Positions 9,019 through 17,890 of a DNA stretch of 24,000 bases are shown piece after piece. The DNA comes from Prochlorothrix sp. GTDB lineage: Bacteria > Cyanobacteriota > Cyanobacteriia > Prochlorotrichales > Prochlorotrichaceae. A program made the position numbers and the translations under genes. Where the stretch lies: the NCBI GenBank assembly GCA_035286285.1, contig JAYKJG010000348.1, positions 1-24,000 on the forward strand. Reading direction: 5' to 3'. The notes under the pieces are model-generated. The model made no database searches. It was given only the letters and a program-made list of their open reading frames with translations, and was not told the origin of the DNA. How positions within the stretch are numbered: the first letter of the stretch is position 1; the number at the start of each line of letters is the position of its first letter.

Positions 9019-10233
9019 ATGGTTCCTGTTATAACTGCCTTACTAGCGCTTTCCCTTGTGATTTGGCTGTTTTTGCTGCTGGCCTGGGGTCAGTTCTGGC
9101 GTTGTGACCAAAAACTCCCCGATCGACTGCCGCACCCCCTCGATCCGGCCCAAGCGCCCCCGATCGCCGTTGTCATCCCCGCCCGCAATGAAGCTGAAGG
9201 CATTGGCACCTGTGTCACCTCCCTGCTCAGCCAGGACTACCCCGGTTCTGTGCGTCTTATTGTGGTGGACGACCAGAGCGACGATGGGACGGCTGAGATC
9301 GCCCGATCGACAGCCCAAGCCCTCAAGGCAACCCATCCCGGCACAGCCGATCGCCTCACGGTTCTGCCCGGTCAACCCCTCGCCCCCGGTTGGACCGGCA
9401 AACTCTGGGCCTTGGAGCAAGGGACTCGCTATACCCAGACCTTAGACCCCAAACCCCAGTATTTACTGCTCACCGATGCGGATATCGCCCACGATCGGCA
9501 AAATTTGAGCCAACTCGTTCACAAAGCTGAAACAGAAAGCTTAGATCTGGTCAGCCTGATGGTGCAATTGCGCTGTAAAAGTAACTGGGAAAAGCTCTTA
9601 ATACCCGCTTTTGTCTACTTTTTCCAACAACTTTACCCCTTTCCTTGGGTTAACAATCCGCAGCGCAAAATGGCGGCAGCAGCAGGGGGCTGTGTTTTGC
9701 TGCGATCGACGGCCTTAAACCGCATTGGGGGCATTGGTGTTCTGCGGGATGCCCTCATTGATGACTGCACCCTAGCCGCCCAGGTTAAGGGCACTCTCCA
9801 GCCCAAAAACCGTAGTTTTTTTCCCATTTGGCTAGGTCTTGGCCCAAAAACCCAAAGTCTACGGGCCTATGACACCCTAGATAGCATCTGGACCATGGTT
9901 GCCCGTACAGCCTACACCCAGCTTCAATATTCGCCGTTACTCCTAGCTGGTACCCTCATCGGCATGGTTTTGGTTTACCTGATGGCCCCGATCGGCCTTC
10001 TCACCGGCCTAATCACCCAAAATCTCAGTTTTATCCTCCTAGGCGGCGGAACCTGGCTCCTCATGGCTCTCTCCTACTGGCCCACGGTGCGTCTATACCA
10101 AATCTCACCCTTTTACGCCCTCACTCTACCCTGGATCGGCTTCCTCTATACCCTCATGACCCTAGACTCCGCCCGCCGCCACTGGCAGGGCAAAGGGGGA
10201 GCCTGGAAAGGCCGCGTTTACCCTCAAAATTAG
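9019..10233 (+). CDS. Family-2 glycosyltransferase with C-terminal TM helices (resembles hopene-associated HpnB-type GT2)
   Basis: GT-A motifs are VAVVIPARNEAEGI, LIVVDDQSDDGT, GWTGKLWALEQG, LLLTDADIAH and AAAGGCVLLR. Several hydrophobic helices follow. The HpnB assignment is from memory and tentative. The track start is TTG 8986; I prefer ATG 9019. Confidence 0.85.
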   Translation: MVPVITALLALSLVIWLFLLLAWGQFWRCDQKLPDRLPHPLDPAQAPPIAVVIPARNEAEGIGTCVTSLLSQDYPGSVRLIVVDDQSDDGTAEIARSTAQALKATHPGTADRLTVLPGQPLAPGWTGKLWALEQGTRYTQTLDPKPQYLLLTDADIAHDRQNLSQLVHKAETESLDLVSLMVQLRCKSNWEKLLIPAFVYFFQQLYPFPWVNNPQRKMAAAAGGCVLLRSTALNRIGGIGVLRDALIDDCTLAAQVKGTLQPKNRSFFPIWLGLGPKTQSLRAYDTLDSIWTMVARTAYTQLQYSPLLLAGTLIGMVLVYLMAPIGLLTGLITQNLSFILLGGGTWLLMALSYWPTVRLYQISPFYALTLPWIGFLYTLMTLDSARRHWQGKGGAWKGRVYPQN

Positions 10234-10259
10234 GTGTAAATATGAAAAAACACTAATGC

Positions 10260-10766
10260 TTGGCTTTACTGGAGAAGCCTGTGAATACCTTTGACTTTCT
10301 ACCTAAATTGCCAGAAGAACAGTGTCAGGCACTGAAGGATCAAGCCGCTATGATTCGGCGGCTATACTTGAAAAAACCGATCGGTCAGAGTAATGTTGCG
10401 ATCGGGGAGGTCTATTTAGCCAATGGCCTGTGCTTTGGGGCAGGGGCTACCTCTAAGCGTCAAAGTCCAATTCCGAAACCTCTACCCCGATCGCAAGGGG
10501 GACAATTTGAGCCAATCTGGGTTTCCTACAACGAGCGGATCATGGATACAGATGCTGAGTTGAAGGTCTTGGACGCAATTGCTACAACCTTGGCAACGCG
10601 CTACGATCGAAGCGTCTCCGGTTCTTTGTATCTCTACACAGAACTCAAACCTTGCCCCAGTTGTCGTGGGGTTATAGAGCAGTTTCAGGAAAGATTTCCT
10701 AATATCTGCCTTTTTATAGCCTGGGATATCACTTACCCTCCTATCACTTTGAGCAATTCCCTATGA
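10260..10766 (+). CDS. Small stand-alone deaminase-fold protein (polymorphic-toxin-type nucleic-acid/nucleotide deaminase-like)
   Basis: 168-aa ORF. D98-A99-E100 (10551-10559) and P131-C132-P133-S134-C135 (10650-10664) lie 32 residues apart. This matches the [HCD]AE ... PCxxC zinc and catalytic signature of the cytidine-deaminase-like fold. The following CRGVIEQFQERFPNI resembles toxin deaminase tails. No secretion or trafficking domain is present. The likely start is GTG 10281, preceded by GGAGAAG (10271-10277). Confidence 0.6.
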   Translation: MALLEKPVNTFDFLPKLPEEQCQALKDQAAMIRRLYLKKPIGQSNVAIGEVYLANGLCFGAGATSKRQSPIPKPLPRSQGGQFEPIWVSYNERIMDTDAELKVLDAIATTLATRYDRSVSGSLYLYTELKPCPSCRGVIEQFQERFPNICLFIAWDITYPPITLSNSL

Positions 10767-11671
10767 GTCACCCTGCCCCTCTTCAGCACCATACCTTCGC
10801 TGCTACCGACCTCCCCCAGTCCATCGTCTCCATCCTCAATCAGGTCAGTGAGTACCGCTATGGCGAATTGTATGAAGAGGGAGGAGACCAGAGTTTGTCC
10901 CTAAAGACTGCAATTAATTACGTTTTTGACGCTTTAGAGTCATCTAGGCCGCAAACCTATCCTCAGTTAAGCCAAGCTCGTTATATCTGGATGGCACTGT
11001 TGCTAAGTATTGCGGTCTGGCCCGGTTTGGAGTTTTACCAGCCCCAAAACCCCTGTCCCCAGGAAACCGTTAACCGTCTAGAGCTTTGGTTATATCTCTG
11101 GCGTTCTCTAAAACGTTCTCAGGATTGGGATGAGTTAGACACATTACTGGGACAAGAGCCAGATATCAGTCCTTGGGAAAATTGGCCAAAATACCCAGTC
11201 AAAGACTCCTGTCCTAGCCTACAGCTTGTTACCGATTGTATTTGGGCCTATGAAAATGCCCAAAGAACGCTAATACGAGCAGAAGCGCGTTCAGCCTGTT
11301 TCGATCTGGTGGAAAGCTGCCTAGAAGACTATGCCATCATGGCAGGCTCAGCCCAGCGTCGAGACCTGTTTGACTGGTGGCTCTGGGCTGTGATTCCCGC
11401 AACGTTGACTTTTTCTAAACCAAAATGGTGGTTTGAGCCACAGCACAACGCAAAAGCGGTATTTCTCTCCTTCTCTCCTAGCCTAGAGCAGTCTCTTAAA
11501 GCCCTTAAAGCGCTGATCTACTTCGAGTCAGCAGAAGTCTACAACCCGCCCCATCCTCCCCAGTCCCAGAGCTTGAACAAATCGAACAGATCGACCTTAA
11601 TCCTCCATAAACCTCAAATTTCAACTTCATTCACCCGTAGGCCCGACTGGACCCGCCAAAGACCGGCATAA
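10763..11671 (+). CDS. Hypothetical Trp-rich helical protein; candidate cognate immunity or antitoxin partner of the deaminase-like protein
   Basis: 302-aa ORF whose ATG (10763) overlaps the upstream TGA (ATGA). I recognise no motif. It is rich in W and acidic residues. Its last ~19 codons overlap the 3' end of the convergent ABC gene, so the true C-terminus is uncertain. Confidence 0.6.
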
Positions 11672-13398
11672 ACGCCGTTCAGGGCTAGCAACTGCTCATG
11701 GGTACCCTGTTCGACCAGATGCCCCAGTTCCATGACGTAAATACGATCGGCATGGCGAATTGTCGATAACCGGTGGGCAATGGCGATCGTGGTGCGATTT
11801 TCCGTAATATGATCCAACGATCGCTGAATGGCGGCTTCCGTTTCGTTGTCTACTGCACTGGTGGCCTCATCCAAAATAAGAATGGGCGGATCCTTGAGCA
11901 AGGCACGGGCGATCGCCAGCCGTTGCCGCTGGCCTCCAGAGAGTTTTTGCCCCCGTTCGCCCACGATCGTGGCGTAACCCTGGGGTAACGTCTCAATAAA
12001 ACCATGGGCTTCCGCCAATTTTGCCGCCTCCTGCACCTGGGCATCCGTCGCCCCAAAGCTGCCATAGCGAATATTATCCGCCACCGTCCCATGGAACAAA
12101 AACACATCCTGGCTCACCCAGCCCACACAGCGCCGCAAATCCCGCAGATTTAGCTCCCGAATATCCCGCCCATCCAACAAAATCCGGCCTTCTTGCAGTT
12201 CATAAAACCGCAGCAGGAGTTTAACCAAGGTACTCTTGCCGGATCCCGTGGAGCCAACGACCCCGATCGTCTGACCCGCAGACACAGTAAGGCTGAGGTT
12301 GCTGATAACCGGCGATCGATCGCGGTAGGCAAAGGTAATCTGGTCAAACTCAATGCTGCCTTCAACTTGGGCCGGATTTAGGGGCTGGGTGCCGGGACGG
12401 ATGGCGATCGGGGTATCCAGCAGATCCAAAATGCGGCGAGTCGAGGCCATGGCCCGCTGATATTGATCCAGGGTATCCCCCAGGCGCACGAGGGGCCACA
12501 GCAGCCGCTGGGTAATAAAAACCATGACACTATAGGTGCCCACAGCCAAAGTACCTTCAACGGCAGAAATTCCGCCAAAAAAGAGGGTTGCCGTAAAGCC
12601 AATCAAAATCAAAATCCGGATCAGAGGCACAAAGGCGGCACTGAGGGCGATCGCGTTGCCGTTGCTGCGGCGGTAGGCTTCACTTTCCAGGCTGACTCGA
12701 TCGGCTTCGTAGGGTTCAGCGGCAAAGCTTTTAATGGTAGCCATGCCAGTTAAGTTATTGGCAAGGCGCATACTGATGAATCCGGCTTTATCGCGCACTG
12801 CGGCGTAGCGGGGGGCTAGTTTTTCTTGAAAAGCAAAGGAACCCCAGAGAATAAAGGGCATGGGTAACATCGCCATCCCGGCAACACCAGGGGCAAACAT
12901 AAAAAAGCCCCCCCCCACCACAATCACCGTGGTAATGACTTGGAGAATTTCGGTCGCCACCCGATCGAGGAATCGCTCCAACTGGTTCACGTCATCATTC
13001 AAAATCGCCAGCAGTTGGCCGGTGCTCCGTTCTTCAAAAAAGCCCATTTCTAGCTCTTGCAGGTGGGTATAGGCATCTAGCCGCAGTTCATGCTGAATGG
13101 TTTGGGCTAAATTGCGCCAGAGGCAGCTATAGGCGTATTCAAAGACGGATTCCAGCCCCCAGACGATCAGGGTCAGGATCGATAAAATGGCGAGTTGGGT
13201 GCGAATACCGGGAAATCCCCAAGTGGCGAGGAGGGAATCCTGTTGCTGCACCACGACATCGACGGCCATACCGATGAGGACCGGGGGGGCAAGGTCGAAG
13301 ATTTTGTTGAGGATGGAGCAGAGGGAGGCAAGGAGGACGGTGGGGCGGTGGGCGCGGCTGTAGGTGAGGAGCCGCTGGAGGGGGTGGGGGGTAGGCAC
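11614..13398 (-). CDS. ABC exporter, fused permease/ATPase (MsbA/ABCB-type)
   Basis: 594 aa with an N-terminal six-helix TMD. Motifs are Walker [11 protein letters not shown]-loop, signature LSGGQRQR, Walker [13 protein letters not shown] and H-loop IAHRL. Confidence 0.93.
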
Positions 13399-13640: not shown

Positions 13641-13755
13641 CCCGCTGAGGTGAATGCCGAATCGTGATCGTTCTCCGCTATAATTGGGGGAGCTGCCCCC
13701 TTAACCTTATTCTTTCAGCCTTTAATTGTCCTACTCACACCTACTAGAGGCTCCT

Positions 13756-14877
13756 ATGGGACTTCAAGAAGAACTAGAGCAAAAACGCCAAGAAATTCGG
13801 ACAGACTCTTACTCTATGTCCGTCGGAGAATTGATCAGTCTTTACCAAGGAAAGGAAATTGAGATTCATCCCCAGTTTCAACGGTTCTTCCGATGGTCTA
13901 CAACCCAGAAAACCCGTTTTATTGAGTCTCTCTTGATTGGTTTGCCGATTCCTCAGATTTTTGTCTCTCAGAGGAAGGATGGAGTGTGGGATGTTGTGGA
14001 TGGCCTACAGCGACTGTCTACGATTTATGAGTTTGTTGGGATTCTCTGCGATGAAACAGGTGAACGGAAAGCACCCTTGATCTTGGAGCAAGGGGAAACA
14101 CTACCATCCCTGAAGGGTAAAAAGTGGGAGGATGGCTATGATCCTGATAACTCCCTAACAAAGGCTGAGCGCCTCTTGATCAAGCGGGCCAAGCTGGAGG
14201 TTGCTATCCTAGTCCAAGGGAGCGACCCGAATGCACAGTATGAATTATTTCAGCGTCTCAATACAGGCGGATCGATTGCGACGGACCAAGAGATTCGCAA
14301 CTGTCTTCTCATTATGGCGAATCCAGATACCTATGACTATATCAAGGATCTCAGTAGCAATGAGCACTTCAAAGACTGCATTGCTTTATCTGACAAGGCA
14401 AGCGCTGAACAGTATGATTTAGAGCTTGTTTTAAGATTCCTGCTCTTTCGGACCATTCCAGAGGAGAAGCTCAAGAAGATTCCATATCCCGACATCAGCG
14501 ACTACCTCACCTATTGTATCCGTCAAGAGATCATTAAGGATCCCGATGACTATGAACGGGATAAGGAAGCCTTCACCACAACCTTTGCCTTGCTAGCGGG
14601 AAGCCTTGGCGATCGCAGCTTCCGGAAGTACTATCCTGCGCAAGATCAGTTCAAAGGAGGCTTTCTCGTCTCTGCATTTGAAGCGATCGCCTTGGGTATT
14701 GGTTACAACTACGATCGGCTCTGTACCCAATCCCTTGACCTAGAGGCAAAGGTAAAAGACCTCTGGCATAATCCGTGCTTCACCAATGCCTTAGGTGGAT
14801 CCTCCAAAGGTAGCATCAGCACTCGCAAGCGATTACAAACGATCTTACCCGTAGGGCGGGAACACTTTAAGGTATGA
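13756..14877 (+). CDS. DUF262 domain protein (ParB-like/GmrSD N-terminal NTPase-type domain) without a DUF1524 nuclease domain
   Basis: Motifs are IHPQFQRFFRWSTTQKTRFIESLLIGLPIPQIFV and WDVVDGLQRLSTIYEF, the DUF262 QR...W / DGxQR signature. No His-Me/HNH motif is visible in the C-terminal ~230 aa. I prefer the start at ATG 13756 with tagagg upstream; the track start is 13726. Confidence 0.85.
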   Translation: MGLQEELEQKRQEIRTDSYSMSVGELISLYQGKEIEIHPQFQRFFRWSTTQKTRFIESLLIGLPIPQIFVSQRKDGVWDVVDGLQRLSTIYEFVGILCDETGERKAPLILEQGETLPSLKGKKWEDGYDPDNSLTKAERLLIKRAKLEVAILVQGSDPNAQYELFQRLNTGGSIATDQEIRNCLLIMANPDTYDYIKDLSSNEHFKDCIALSDKASAEQYDLELVLRFLLFRTIPEEKLKKIPYPDISDYLTYCIRQEIIKDPDDYERDKEAFTTTFALLAGSLGDRSFRKYYPAQDQFKGGFLVSAFEAIALGIGYNYDRLCTQSLDLEAKVKDLWHNPCFTNALGGSSKGSISTRKRLQTILPVGREHFKV

Positions 14878-15524
14878 GCAAGGTTCGGACTCTGGAGGAT
14901 CTTAGCAACCGCTTGAATGACGATCTGACTTGGCGTAAGCGGGAACTATCTAAACTAAAGGCAATGATTGAAACTGAGCGGTCTGATATGGAGCGCAGTC
15001 GTGTTTTGTTACGGAGTGGCTTGACTCTGTTATATGCCCATTGGGAAGGCTTTATTAAAGAGGCCGGGTCACTATACTTGGAGTATGTGGCAATGCAACG
15101 GCTCAACTACGATCAACTGACTAGTAATTTTCTGGCACTGGCTTTTAAGAAACGTCTAGCGGAGGTGAATGAGACCCATAAAGCAACTATCTATACCACA
15201 AGCTTAGACTTTATCCGGTTTCAACTGTCTCAACGTAGCCAGATACCCTACAAAGAAGGTATAAGAACTGGATCCAACCTTTCTTCAGAGGTACTCAAGG
15301 AGATTATTTGTATCCTGGGATTAGAGTATGACTTCTATGAAACGAAGCAGAAACTGATTGACACAAAACTGCTTGCAAAGCGGAATCAGATTGCCCATGG
15401 TGAATACTTAGACCTAGATGCTGAGGACTATGCAGCACTACAGAAGCAAATTATCACCATGATCGATCACTTTAAAGCTCAAATTGAAAATAATGCTTCT
15501 CAAGAAAAGTATAAATCGCCCTGA
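14874..15524 (+). CDS. HEPN-type predicted RNase (resembles the MAE_28990/MAE_18760 HEPN-like nuclease family)
   Basis: 216-aa all-helical ORF with the Rx4H motif in AKRNQIAHGEY near the C-terminus. Its ATG overlaps the DUF262 stop (ggtATGAgc, 14874-14877). Confidence 0.8.
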   Translation: MSKVRTLEDLSNRLNDDLTWRKRELSKLKAMIETERSDMERSRVLLRSGLTLLYAHWEGFIKEAGSLYLEYVAMQRLNYDQLTSNFLALAFKKRLAEVNETHKATIYTTSLDFIRFQLSQRSQIPYKEGIRTGSNLSSEVLKEIICILGLEYDFYETKQKLIDTKLLAKRNQIAHGEYLDLDAEDYAALQKQIITMIDHFKAQIENNASQEKYKSP

Positions 15525-15873: not shown

Positions 15874-16668
15874 TTAACTGGACTCCAGGTGAGGGTCTGT
15901 TTGGAGGATCGTCAGGATCTCAGTTTCAAATGCTTGTGCCTGGGAACAGCATTGCTTAAGATTTTGCCAATTTTCGGTGACTTTTGGTGCATAAACCCGA
16001 TAATTTCGGACACTTTTCTTGATTCGTTGTTGTTTTGGCAACTGCGCTAGCCGTTTCTCAACCTTGGGATCGCATTCACCCCCTTGCAAACAGGGGTGAC
16101 TTGGCGGTAGGACCGCAGTTGCTAACCAAGTACCCGAAGATTGGGCAGGTAAGCAGAAACAAGTTTGGTTTCCTGGTATTGCCTGTCCTAGCCAACTCCG
16201 AATGACTTCTAGAAGTGAGGTAACCGTTGCGGACACTGGGGGACATGGCTGCTGACAAGGCAGGCACTTCCAAGCGTTGTCTTGAGCCATCTTTGAGAAA
16301 TAAGGTTCATCCTTGGGATCGTAGTCTTGATACTCAAAGCCTCCCACATCTACATCTACGTGAATAATCAATAAGTCAAAACAAGCCAGGGTTGGATCAA
16401 AATCGAGAGAGCCTTGATGTCGCTTTTGAGTCTCGTGGCACCATTTGGCGACCCCGCCCCAACCTGTCCCTAGCCGGGGCTGAGTGGCCTCTGGTTGCAG
16501 TAAGGTCAGGACAAAGGGATTGGGTAAAATTGCCTTGAGAGCAGCCTGAATCACTTCTAAATCCCCTGGTCCTTCAGCAACTAAAGCAATGCGTAGAGTT
16601 CTATTGAAGAGCTTGGGGAGGATGGTAGACTGTTTGCTGGGCAGCGTTGGATCTGTGGCCTCAGACAT
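15874..16668 (-). CDS. TOPRIM-like protein (DUF4276/DUF4435/RloB-like) with a Cys-rich insert
   Basis: Near the N-terminus is RIALVAEGPGDLEV (an EG..D/E motif). About 70 aa later comes LLIIHVDVDVGG (an acidic DxD cluster), as in OLD-type TOPRIM partners of ABC ATPases. The insert reads WKCLPCQQPCPP...CFCLP...HPCLQGGECDP. I prefer ATG 16668, which overlaps the ATPase stop by 8 nt (ATGTCTGA). The track start 16683 is a TTG. Confidence 0.65.
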   Translation of the reverse strand: MSEATDPTLPSKQSTILPKLFNRTLRIALVAEGPGDLEVIQAALKAILPNPFVLTLLQPEATQPRLGTGWGGVAKWCHETQKRHQGSLDFDPTLACFDLLIIHVDVDVGGFEYQDYDPKDEPYFSKMAQDNAWKCLPCQQPCPPVSATVTSLLEVIRSWLGQAIPGNQTCFCLPAQSSGTWLATAVLPPSHPCLQGGECDPKVEKRLAQLPKQQRIKKSVRNYRVYAPKVTENWQNLKQCCSQAQAFETEILTILQTDPHLESS

Positions 16669-17890
16669 GGGGGACGGCTCCAAGGTGGCCCATTAGCCAC
16701 AGGCGCGAAAGGGGATACTGTTGGTTGAGATCCAGCAGTTGGGCGTTGAGGGTAAGGCGTTGGATGACAGTTTGGCCGTTACTATTACGATCGACGGCAA
16801 ACAGACGCACCTCTGGATCGCCTAGGTCCAGACCATCAAGGGCAGCCGGGTTATGAACCGTAAAGAGAATCTGGCGATCGGGGCTACTATGAACTAACCA
16901 ACTGGGCAAACGGGTGATTAGTGCCCTCAGCAGGCGGGGATTGAGGGCTTGATCGAGATTGTCGATCGCTAAGGTTTGGGGGGCTGGGGGCAATAGGCAC
17001 AGTAGCGCGGTAAACAGAATATACAGTGCCCCTTCACTGGCATCGTAGGCAGTCAATTCATTGCGGCTTTTCTGCATAAACCGATCGCTAAATTTCAAAA
17101 TTTCTTTGGTACGGGGAACCTTCGGGGAGAGGAGTTTTGCCCCATACCGAATCGTCTCGATGTCGGCTACCCAGTCAATTAGCTCTAGAATTTGCTCAAA
17201 AATGACTTCTGACTGGTTTTCAGAAGCCATTGCAAGGTCTTTTGAGTCACTGTCGGCTTTTGCCTCAAGATATTGCCGAAGACTTGCAAACCCCTCCGCC
17301 AGTTGACCGCCATTGAGTCCTACGGGAGTGCGGGACTGCTGATCAGGAACAATCCCCCGTAGGGTTGGTGTGTTAGGGCAGTAAATGGCAAAGTCTCGGA
17401 GTTGCTGTATGAGTTGGTTTGCAGGGCTGTCGCGTGCCAAATTGACCAGTTGTAGGGCCGCGAGTCCTGCTTGGGGATTGAGATTTTTCTGACTTCGCAC
17501 ACCACTGGCAATAATCTCAGTGGTGCCATCATGGAGCACTTCTGTTTTATAGGACCAGGCTGGATCAGGGGAATCAATGGGATTGAGGAGGGAAACCCGG
17601 TAAAAGGCTTGGCTCTCGCTAGTGGCCTCGATCGTGATGTGGGGAGGAGTGCGATCGGACCGAAAGGAGCTTTTATAGAGCCGTGGCAAGCTAGCCCGAA
17701 CCCCGCGCCGGAGCAAACTTTCATCGTCTACAACGCCATTGGCAGCGGCTCCCAGAACCCCAAGGGCTTCTAAGACATTACTTTTGCCGACTCCATTGGC
17801 TCCAATCAAACAGTTCAGCCGACCCAGTTCCAACTTGGCCTGGTAAATAGACTTGAAGCCCTGAATTTTAACCTGGCGAATCATGCCCAT
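16661..17890 (-). CDS. ABC/OLD-type AAA ATPase (AAA_21/AAA_15-like, COG-type 'predicted ATPase')
   Basis: Motifs are IQGFKSI...LNCLIGANGVGKSNVLEAL (Walker A), SEGALYILFTALL (signature-like), LAIDNLDQALNP (Walker B/D-loop), ILFTVHNP (H-loop) and the C-terminal LSRLWLMGHLGAVP. Confidence 0.88.
   Translation of the reverse strand: MGMIRQVKIQGFKSIYQAKLELGRLNCLIGANGVGKSNVLEALGVLGAAANGVVDDESLLRRGVRASLPRLYKSSFRSDRTPPHITIEATSESQAFYRVSLLNPIDSPDPAWSYKTEVLHDGTTEIIASGVRSQKNLNPQAGLAALQLVNLARDSPANQLIQQLRDFAIYCPNTPTLRGIVPDQQSRTPVGLNGGQLAEGFASLRQYLEAKADSDSKDLAMASENQSEVIFEQILELIDWVADIETIRYGAKLLSPKVPRTKEILKFSDRFMQKSRNELTAYDASEGALYILFTALLCLLPPAPQTLAIDNLDQALNPRLLRALITRLPSWLVHSSPDRQILFTVHNPAALDGLDLGDPEVRLFAVDRNSNGQTVIQRLTLNAQLLDLNQQYPLSRLWLMGHLGAVPHV

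Follow-up and report, generated by a model that had tools for sequence, protein, structure and literature searches.

The 24,000-nt stretch of Prochlorothrix sp. DNA analysed here (contig JAYKJG010000348.1, positions 1 to 24,000; below, the window) contains a forward-strand cassette of two genes, one for a small deaminase (10260..10766) and one for a 302-aa partner, read from an ATG (10763..11671) and predicted to be an immunity protein or antitoxin of an undescribed all-alpha family. The stop codon of the first and the start codon of the second overlap in an ATGA (10763..10766), the arrangement of translational coupling; an earlier note, made from the letters alone, had described both open reading frames (ORFs) and their overlap as they are found. 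We favour, with fair confidence, the reading of the pair as a toxin and its cognate neutralising protein, both intracellular, forming a horizontally acquired module similar to toxin-antitoxin (TA) systems. The note had given the first protein 168 aa, and the maximal ORF does have that length from a TTG, but the true start is probably the GTG at 10281-10283, which yields a coding sequence of 10281-10766 and 161 aa: a GGAG (10271-10274), the probable ribosome-binding site, lies upstream with a 6-nt spacer (together 10271..10283, forward strand), the public annotation of the protein (P0001) has 161 aa, and the conserved region of its homologues begins near residue 24. An ATG at residue 31 was rejected as the start, because conservation among homologues extends upstream of it.

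With a score of 49.8 bits the deaminase exceeds the cutoff of 29.6 set for the Pfam profile PF14424 (Toxin-deaminase, BURPS668_1122 family; E 5.1e-13). Only residues 96-151 are covered, and since the Pfam model aligns just to the C-terminal half, we regard the N-terminal half as clade-specific. Sub-threshold Pfam matches were to APOBEC1, SNAD4, NAD1 and dCMP_cyt_deam. The note had singled out DAE at residues 98-100 and PCPSC at 131-135; both stand in the translation, and because the PF14424 score exceeds its cutoff, the motif pair is not a chance match. The first motif, D98-A-E100-L-K102 (DxExK, 10551..10565, forward strand), would provide a metal ligand and the catalytic Glu at the start of helix 2, and the second, P131-C132-P-S-C135 (PCxxC, 10650..10664, forward strand), a pair of zinc-binding Cys where helix 3 begins. 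Alignments of 24 and 72 sequences show no variation at D98, A99, E100 and K102, and C132, S134 and C135 (C102, S104 and C105 of alignment A3) are invariant among full-length homologues, so the four residues on which the note had rested its deaminase proposal (D98, E100, C132 and C135) are indeed conserved. Its remark that Asp is the first ligand also stands, but this is not merely a rare variant: it is a hallmark of the BURPS668_1122 clade, whose features include the DxExK motif and an insert that separates strand 2 from helix 2 (Iyer 2011, PMC3239186). The corresponding segment here (10452..10550, forward strand), with S65, P74, G80, G81, F83, E84, P85, M95 and T97 invariant (alignment A1), carries the clade signature and is a probable substrate-binding cap, judging from these residues, the structural model and the published clade description. 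The 75 homologues collected are 100-170 aa long, most of them 134-170 aa, and nearly all cyanobacterial; the named ones are annotated 'deaminase domain-containing protein', and all those listed except the three most truncated (P0073-P0075) have a precomputed PF14424 match. The deaminase thus belongs to a known family and is already annotated as such in public records. Two deaminases that accompany divergent partners of ~215 aa (L063:12-1577 and L067:2-223) carry HPE or HAE in place of DAE, so the first metal ligand appears to switch between His and Asp among partner-associated deaminases.

An AlphaFold model covering residues 31-168 (positions here in model numbering) scored pLDDT 86.5 and pTM 0.83. 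Its elements follow the order helix, strand 1, strand 2, a 34-residue insert, helix 2 with DAE, strand 3, helix 3 with PCxxC and strand 4, after which the fold ends; a strand occupies 28-34, then come the insert, the helix at 69-84 with DAE at its N-terminus, the helix that starts from PCxxC at 103-115, and strand 4 at 119-124. Foldseek against PDB returned APOBEC3H (5w45) as best match (E 3e-4, probability 1.0, TM 0.49-0.54), followed by APOBEC3A/C/F/G (probability ~1.0) and then by classical cytidine deaminases (CDA tetramers) and blasticidin deaminases. Profile and model, the latter reaching APOBEC3 and CDA at probability 1.0, thus both bear out the deaminase fold that the note had proposed, and we assign the protein to the BURPS668_1122 (PF14424) clade with a predicted truncated cytidine-deaminase/APOBEC-like fold. 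It is not a member of the AID/APOBEC3 family of single-stranded DNA (ssDNA) cytosine deaminases: these are the best structural matches, with TM ~0.5, but identity is 11-16%, the first ligand is Asp and not His, helix 4 and strand 5 are lacking, and the loops differ. Since other PF14424 members deaminate cytidine in ssDNA base-editor reporters (bioRxiv 10.1101/2023.05.21.541555), the window protein would be a zinc-dependent cytosine deaminase acting most likely on DNA, with ssDNA as the best guess, and its toxicity would come from C-to-U conversion, through mutation and uracil-excision damage.

The partner was called unrecognisable and Trp-rich in the earlier note. Both descriptions hold as far as curated libraries and composition go (14 W, 4.6%; no sequence match in Pfam, NCBIfam, PADLOC or PDB), but the protein does belong to a conserved family. 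A single-sequence word-index search with it retrieved only two Prochlorothrix proteins, which proved a false negative: a profile search found 205 family members in a collection of 5.8 billion proteins, and a separate exhaustive search likewise found 205 among 1.84 billion cluster representatives, so the family is small and specific. When 45 homologues were compared with Pfam, none gave a match below E 0.004, and no Imm or SUKH model was among the 25 families listed. The conserved part is a helical core of residues ~15-222 (10805..11428, forward strand; alignments A2 and A4, pLDDT), followed by a variable, predicted-disordered C-terminal tail (11429..11671, forward strand), for which A2 has no conservation and pLDDT is low. 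Near the end of the core lies a family signature (residues 186-213, 11318..11401, forward strand; consensus DDCLEGYAIFPGSxGRRELFDWWLLEVVPA), in which Y190, A191, G195, S196, R200, L202, F203, W205, W206 and P212 are invariant. Other conserved motifs are HYEELYE, RYVWMAL..VEPT..YYQP and Q..EALDV, and the last 80 residues are variable. The AlphaFold model (pLDDT 76.8) consists of helices throughout residues ~15-220 and has a disordered tail; most of 11-220 reaches pLDDT 74-95, with values above 90 in most of the core and below 50 at 266-302. The fold had no significant match in PDB or in BFVD, a set of predicted viral structures. We rejected a membrane protein, because Kyte-Doolittle values over 19 residues do not rise above 1.2-1.7 and the model buries the hydrophobic stretches as helices. 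The family, absent from Pfam, NCBIfam, PADLOC and PDB, is new, and no description of it or of the cyanobacterial pair was found in the literature.

The case for neutralisation comes from distant partner homologues, ~200-220 aa long, that stand behind large proteins and keep the family signature beside PAAR and Rhs toxins. At one locus (L062), a DcrB/Eag-type chaperone gene is followed by a gene for a 390-aa prePAAR+PAAR protein and then, 20 nt downstream, by a partner homologue (P0267; 21% identity to the window partner over 207 aa, E 6e-12). The PAAR protein ends in 140 residues that match the cyanobacterial deaminase profile over its whole length (156 bits) and share 46% identity with the window deaminase (E 4e-40). 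The order chaperone, effector, immunity is canonical for effectors of type VI secretion systems (T6SS), and L062 has exactly this layout. At two further loci the partner directly follows a protein ending in the deaminase domain, in one case an Rhs/YD-repeat protein of at least 636 aa (L074) and in the other a protein of at least 1143 aa (L087); another homologue, P0256, starts with a 1-nt overlap at the end of a protein of at least 2437 aa, whose C-terminus is not readable. By position, distant partner homologues occupy the classic immunity slot of deaminase toxins, which lends direct comparative support to the earlier proposal of a toxin-immunity or TA-like pair. Matches on Ralstonia megaplasmids proved to be ordinary large toxins; the small ORF downstream of them is a different one, and a homologue of the partner is absent. 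Also new is the place of this partner family beside one deaminase subclade, be it PAAR-borne, Rhs-borne, free-standing or NTPase-linked (the last form is described below).

Among characterised systems, the polymorphic toxins of the BURPS668_1122 family (CDI/CdiA-CT, Rhs, PAAR; PMC3239186, PMC3482391) share the deaminase family and an immediately adjacent neutralising gene. The window cassette differs from them in that its deaminase lacks an N-terminal trafficking or repeat region and has no neighbouring full-length toxin, in being conserved as a free-standing unit across cyanobacteria, and in a partner that is ~2-3x larger and falls outside the immunity families recorded for the clade, which are Imm2, Imm3 and SUKH (Zhang 2012, PMC3482391). 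DddA-DddI (SCP1.201/BaDTF1) and SsdA-SsdAI (BaDTF2; PMC7901873) likewise combine a small CDA-fold DNA cytosine deaminase with an adjacent cognate neutraliser, and SCP1.201 is the sister clade of BURPS668_1122 (Iyer 2011, PMC3239186). These deaminases, which the T6SS delivers as C-terminal domains, have His as first ligand and are members of other Pfam families, and there is no sequence relationship between the immunity proteins; for the window deaminase, activity is predicted. SsdAI is all-helical and plugs the active site of SsdA (PMC7901873). By analogy, the window partner would be a soluble all-helical protein that most likely binds the deaminase 1:1 and blocks its active site.

The same loci could be turned towards another explanation, in which the cell exports the deaminase against other bacteria or eukaryotes and keeps the partner as immunity protein, the toxin travelling as cargo effector loaded non-covalently on a contractile-injection or other secretion apparatus encoded elsewhere. 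PAAR, Rhs and giant toxins after all carry this domain as their warhead and are followed by the partner as immunity, homologues carry short, variable N-terminal extensions ahead of the conserved domain, and a conserved third small gene found at some loci could be an adaptor. We consider export unlikely. The window deaminase is a single domain of 161-168 aa with neither an N-terminal trafficking domain nor a signal peptide-like segment; the lack of a delivery domain noted earlier is thus borne out, no extra domain having been found and homologues being mostly 134-170 aa. No secretion or injection genes were seen in the window, where the cassette is surrounded by HpnB, an ABC exporter, CoaX and defence genes, and a scan of the ten commonest neighbour families at the other loci found no Rhs, PAAR, hemagglutinin or secretion genes. 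Exported weapons typically diversify, whereas this deaminase is strongly conserved (mean p-distance 0.38, dN/dS ~0.24), and the cassettes are scattered singly amid housekeeping genes. Because trafficking domain, signal-like segment and nearby secretion genes are all missing, this is not a conventional polymorphic toxin locus. The intracellular toxin-antidote pair that we prefer would most likely act inside the producing cell and not be delivered as a weapon, its purpose being addiction, abortive phage defence or both; our leading guess for the cellular role is addiction combined with abortive phage defence.

The two genes are inherited together. A deaminase-seeded survey covered 58 species-representative genomes, with 56 cyanobacterial loci and 2 from Sorangium. 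In almost every locus an ORF of 200-320 aa starts between ~-30 and +60 nt from the deaminase stop, and 44 of these downstream ORFs are homologous to the window partner (25-36% identity, E 1e-18 to 1e-40). By tblastn, a partner homologue directly follows the deaminase in 51 of the 55 assessable cyanobacterial loci, so the co-occurrence on which the note's pairing depended is found; adjacency is kept with reversed gene order in Sorangium and in two metagenome loci. Distance matrices of deaminase and partner correlate across 45 loci with a Mantel r of 0.846 (0/2000 permutations as high), and the partner evolves faster (mean p-distance 0.59 vs 0.38). In its 4-nt overlap, adjacency, Mantel correlation and variable sites, the cassette fits the pattern expected of a type II-like TA module, two small genes transcribed and inherited together. 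Pfam-based scans detected no HTH, RHH or AbrB domain in the partner; lack of a DNA-binding antitoxin domain is compatible with type IV/VII-like modes. That the delivery-less form is conserved across cyanobacteria is likewise new.

Among 13 closely related locus pairs, median dN/dS was ~0.24 for the deaminase and ~0.36 for the partner, with a range of ~0.1-0.6 for both apart from one low-dS outlier; values are well below 1 in 12/13 pairs for the deaminase and 13/13 for the partner, and both genes are therefore maintained by selection. This bears on the idea that the cassette is an inert orphan left by a degraded polymorphic-toxin locus and now devoid of function, an idea with some precedent, since stand-alone toxin cassettes without trafficking modules are known at polymorphic toxin loci (PMC3239186), and with several visibly decaying related loci to its credit. 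Besides the selection on both genes, the absence of a full-length toxin gene nearby, the intact ORFs with complete catalytic residues, and a two-gene layout maintained across distant cyanobacterial orders make such a remnant very improbable.

Decay, where it occurs, is asymmetric. A partner-seeded survey gave 80 metagenome loci, 59 of them assessable. An intact stand-alone deaminase lies beside the partner at 35 (2 in reversed order), large fused toxins occur at 2, the deaminase is truncated or frameshifted next to an intact partner at 12, and at 10 the partner is an orphan. The genome survey added 4 loci with a broken deaminase and an intact partner, and 3 with both genes degraded. The sole locus with a truncated partner (L050) has deaminase substitutions at two otherwise invariant positions (N45D, E84K). 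Combined, 16 broken-deaminase/intact-partner loci and 10 orphan partners stand against one truncated partner, as expected if a toxin cannot persist without its antidote while the antidote can persist alone. The pattern also counts against a non-toxic two-subunit enzyme, in which the partner would target or activate the deaminase, in normal physiology, for site-specific action on a nucleic acid or for a small molecule such as a pterin or nucleotide: here it is the deaminase that decays, repeatedly, and the partner that remains, at times as an orphan. Such an enzyme would account for purifying selection on both proteins, the invariant polar motif of the partner, the highly conserved insert specific to the deaminase, and the folate/pterin-related genes (HPPK+NUDIX; BT1 transporter) upstream in two lineages. 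It fits poorly with a sporadic distribution (56 cyanobacterial species representatives), variable sites, two copies in one genome, and a domain identical to the toxic tip of PAAR and Rhs effectors, and we hold it to be quite improbable.

Composition and surroundings point to mobility. Whole-gene G+C is 0.48 for the deaminase and 0.50 for the partner, against 0.56 in each flanking gene, and third-position G+C (GC3) is 0.48 and 0.51 against 0.62 and 0.63; the line counts from which the note had judged the pair A/T-rich (25/60 G+C at 10261-10320, 28/60 at 11101-11160) are exact and agree with these gene-level values. The flanks are those it had named: upstream an HpnB-type GT2 glycosyltransferase (TIGR03469, 7e-171) and downstream an MsbA-like ABC exporter on the minus strand, convergent to the partner. 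Elsewhere, 198 flanking ORFs fall into 123 clusters, including HPPK, NUDIX, YjeF, aconitase, BT1 transporter, GTPase, Uma2, C5 methylase and NACHT-TPR. Anabaena sp. PCC 7108 has two paralogous cassettes (L070 and L072; KB235896.1, 1.83 Mb and 1.44 Mb), one consisting of a 291-aa partner and the third gene beside Mrr and Uma2 genes, the other having a 253-aa partner and Uma2 fragments as flanks. Given varied flanks, two copies in one genome and low G+C, we regard this as a small mobile accessory cassette; our best reading of the window is that it was acquired horizontally beside a small defence islet. The closest public relatives of both window proteins are from Prochlorothrix metagenome-assembled genomes, at 99-100% identity. 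In Laspinema olomoucense (L045, 4829-5569 and 6402-7247) an extra partner paralogue lies immediately upstream of the deaminase, besides the downstream copy.

The islet lies 2-6 kb from the cassette and consists of two modules with similarly low GC3. The first is a forward-strand pair with a 4-nt overlap (13726-15524; G+C 0.41-0.49), identified through PADLOC and Pfam: a 383-aa DUF262/GmrSD_N protein (PADLOC NsnA 5.5e-62, PD-T4-2_A 4e-32) and a 216-aa HEPN protein (PF18737, MAE_28990-type, and PF18735, RiboL-PSP-type), together a probable two-gene defence module. The second, on the minus strand, is a full match to the candidate system PDC-M31 (15874-17890) and consists of a 409-aa AAA_21/AAA_15 ATPase and a 269-aa protein (PADLOC A 2.7e-186, B 9.5e-97). 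This setting raises the possibility, which we judge on the doubtful side, that the cassette is a dedicated anti-phage system, whose partner holds an APOBEC-like deaminase inactive and frees it on infection, so that phage or host DNA is hypermutated or degraded in abortive infection. Such a role would be a specific one within the toxin-antidote framework and not a different biochemistry. In its favour are the nearness of the DUF262/NsnA-like + HEPN pair and PDC-M31 and their shared low GC3, the Mrr, Uma2, C5-methylase or NACHT-TPR neighbours at other loci, the P-loop NTPase operons described next, which resemble sensor-effector defence operons, and the precedent of the deaminase toxin/antitoxin AvcID (PMC10511110). 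Were it right, the cassette would resemble AvcID and RADAR RdrB as an intracellular deaminase held by a co-encoded antidote and unleashed on infection; AvcD differs as a dCMP/dCTP nucleotide-pool deaminase with a P-loop kinase-like domain and an RNA antitoxin, RADAR as an adenosine-deaminase-superfamily enzyme with an ATPase, and neither is related in sequence to the window deaminase or acts on its predicted substrate class. Against a dedicated defence system, no PADLOC 2.0 model matches the deaminase or the partner, nor does any match the third gene or the PAAR-linked homologues, and the P-loop NTPases match defence models weakly (mad8, 3e-5). Elsewhere the cassette is mostly surrounded by housekeeping genes, among which Uma2, Mrr, C5-methylase or NACHT-TPR genes are scattered; evidence from the neighbourhood is suggestive at most. 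Neither tblastn of both proteins against phage GenBank records nor both profiles against IMG/VR found relatives, so counter-defence homologues are not evident there.

The NTPase-linked form is a three-gene operon found in two Sorangium species and on a high-GC metagenome contig (L052:3696-6414, L054:3690-6435 and L064:78-2814). Its first gene encodes a P-loop NTPase of 407-409 aa, 59-61% identical between loci and with weak AAA_16/nSTAND5 (STAND) matches, the second a partner homologue of 323-331 aa that is extended at its N-terminus, and the third a deaminase of 137-180 aa, so that partner and deaminase are in the reverse of their cyanobacterial order; 4-nt overlaps are present at L054 and L064, where the partner start is clear. 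An NTPase-first operon with 4-nt overlaps is a layout typical of sensor-effector defence operons. An apparent partner-deaminase fusion in Sorangium was rejected, the two lying in different reading frames and the long ORF being a high-GC artefact. More speculatively, and in our estimation rather unlikely, the cassette and its NTPase-linked form might be a bacterial counterpart of APOBEC-type antiviral restriction, with the partner as a guard or sensor and not only a plug. The partner would then silence a ~140-aa DNA cytosine deaminase until phage infection, or in the three-gene form a signal from the P-loop NTPase, released it to hypermutate replicating phage DNA; if so, an uncatalogued defence family would be concentrated in multicellular bacteria (filamentous cyanobacteria and myxobacteria).

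Several points weigh against a simple toxin and antidote. The partner core, at ~210 aa, is larger than typical immunity proteins, and its polar motif GSxGRRELFDWW is more conserved than is usual for them, which could mean that the partner has an activity of its own; nor does it resemble the Imm2, Imm3 or SUKH families recorded for the clade. The deaminase substrate is extrapolated from other PF14424 members, and some of the metagenome deaminase frameshifts may be assembly errors. The module also sometimes exceeds a pair, as in the NTPase operons of Sorangium type and in 21 cyanobacterial loci where a third conserved gene follows the partner (e.g. L002:7387-7761, L012:7367-7780, L070:5899-6306). 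The 125-146 aa that this gene encodes have an acidic N-terminus, after which comes VGQIVKWK..NQPAIVV..SGSPYF..LDI.LG..FLTFYYDSRRFE.Y; a search of the window found no copy, and the family has no Pfam, PDB or PADLOC match.

If the pair is what we propose, the partner would define a new immunity/antitoxin family that neutralises a single subclade of DNA-deaminase toxins, whether PAAR-linked, Rhs-linked or free-standing, and its public annotation as 'hypothetical protein' could be improved. A polymorphic-toxin warhead would have turned into a domesticated chromosomal cassette that lacks a delivery module, kept by purifying selection in at least 56 cyanobacterial species and NTPase-linked in myxobacteria, offering a concrete case for the study of interbacterial weapons turning into intracellular addiction or defence modules. 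Relatives from the DddA, SsdA and PF14424 families have already been applied in base editing or footprinting; deaminases of ~140 aa with an Asp ligand, together with their natural inhibitors, would be candidates for compact enzymes of this kind.

We lastly note some peculiarities of the loci: (i) In the window, the non-conserved 3' end of the partner gene and the 3' end of the ABC exporter gene overlap convergently by 58 nt (11614-11671), with no terminator-like site between them; a promoter and terminator scan of 9800-11900 gave nothing above shuffled expectation, and the gap between hpnB and the cassette is only 26-47 nt. (ii) A contig of GC 0.33 (Logan SRR12232786; L068:5001-6284) encodes a 427-aa protein in which a 220-aa N-terminal region of unknown nature precedes a partner domain of cyanobacterial type (E 1e-58). 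No deaminase lies within 11 kb, and the surroundings are ~20 small co-directional ORFans and a DUF4326 gene. The contig has no megablast match to known phages, DUF4326 being its sole PHROG match; judging from this setting, it may carry a mobile-element or phage-borne orphan antidote. (iii) In Aphanizomenon, Dolichospermum and Anabaena a C-5 cytosine DNA methyltransferase gene (PF00145, 1e-74) stands directly upstream of the deaminase on the same strand (L021:4699-5946, L035, L038 and L042). This could be a coincidental restriction-modification context or, because 5-methylcytosine is a deaminase substrate or protectant, a functional link. (iv) The folate/pterin genes upstream in two lineages (L010/L012/L014/L017 and L032/L034/L048/L056), with HPPK and NUDIX marking one lineage and a BT1 folate-biopterin transporter the other, are probably a matter of chance synteny.

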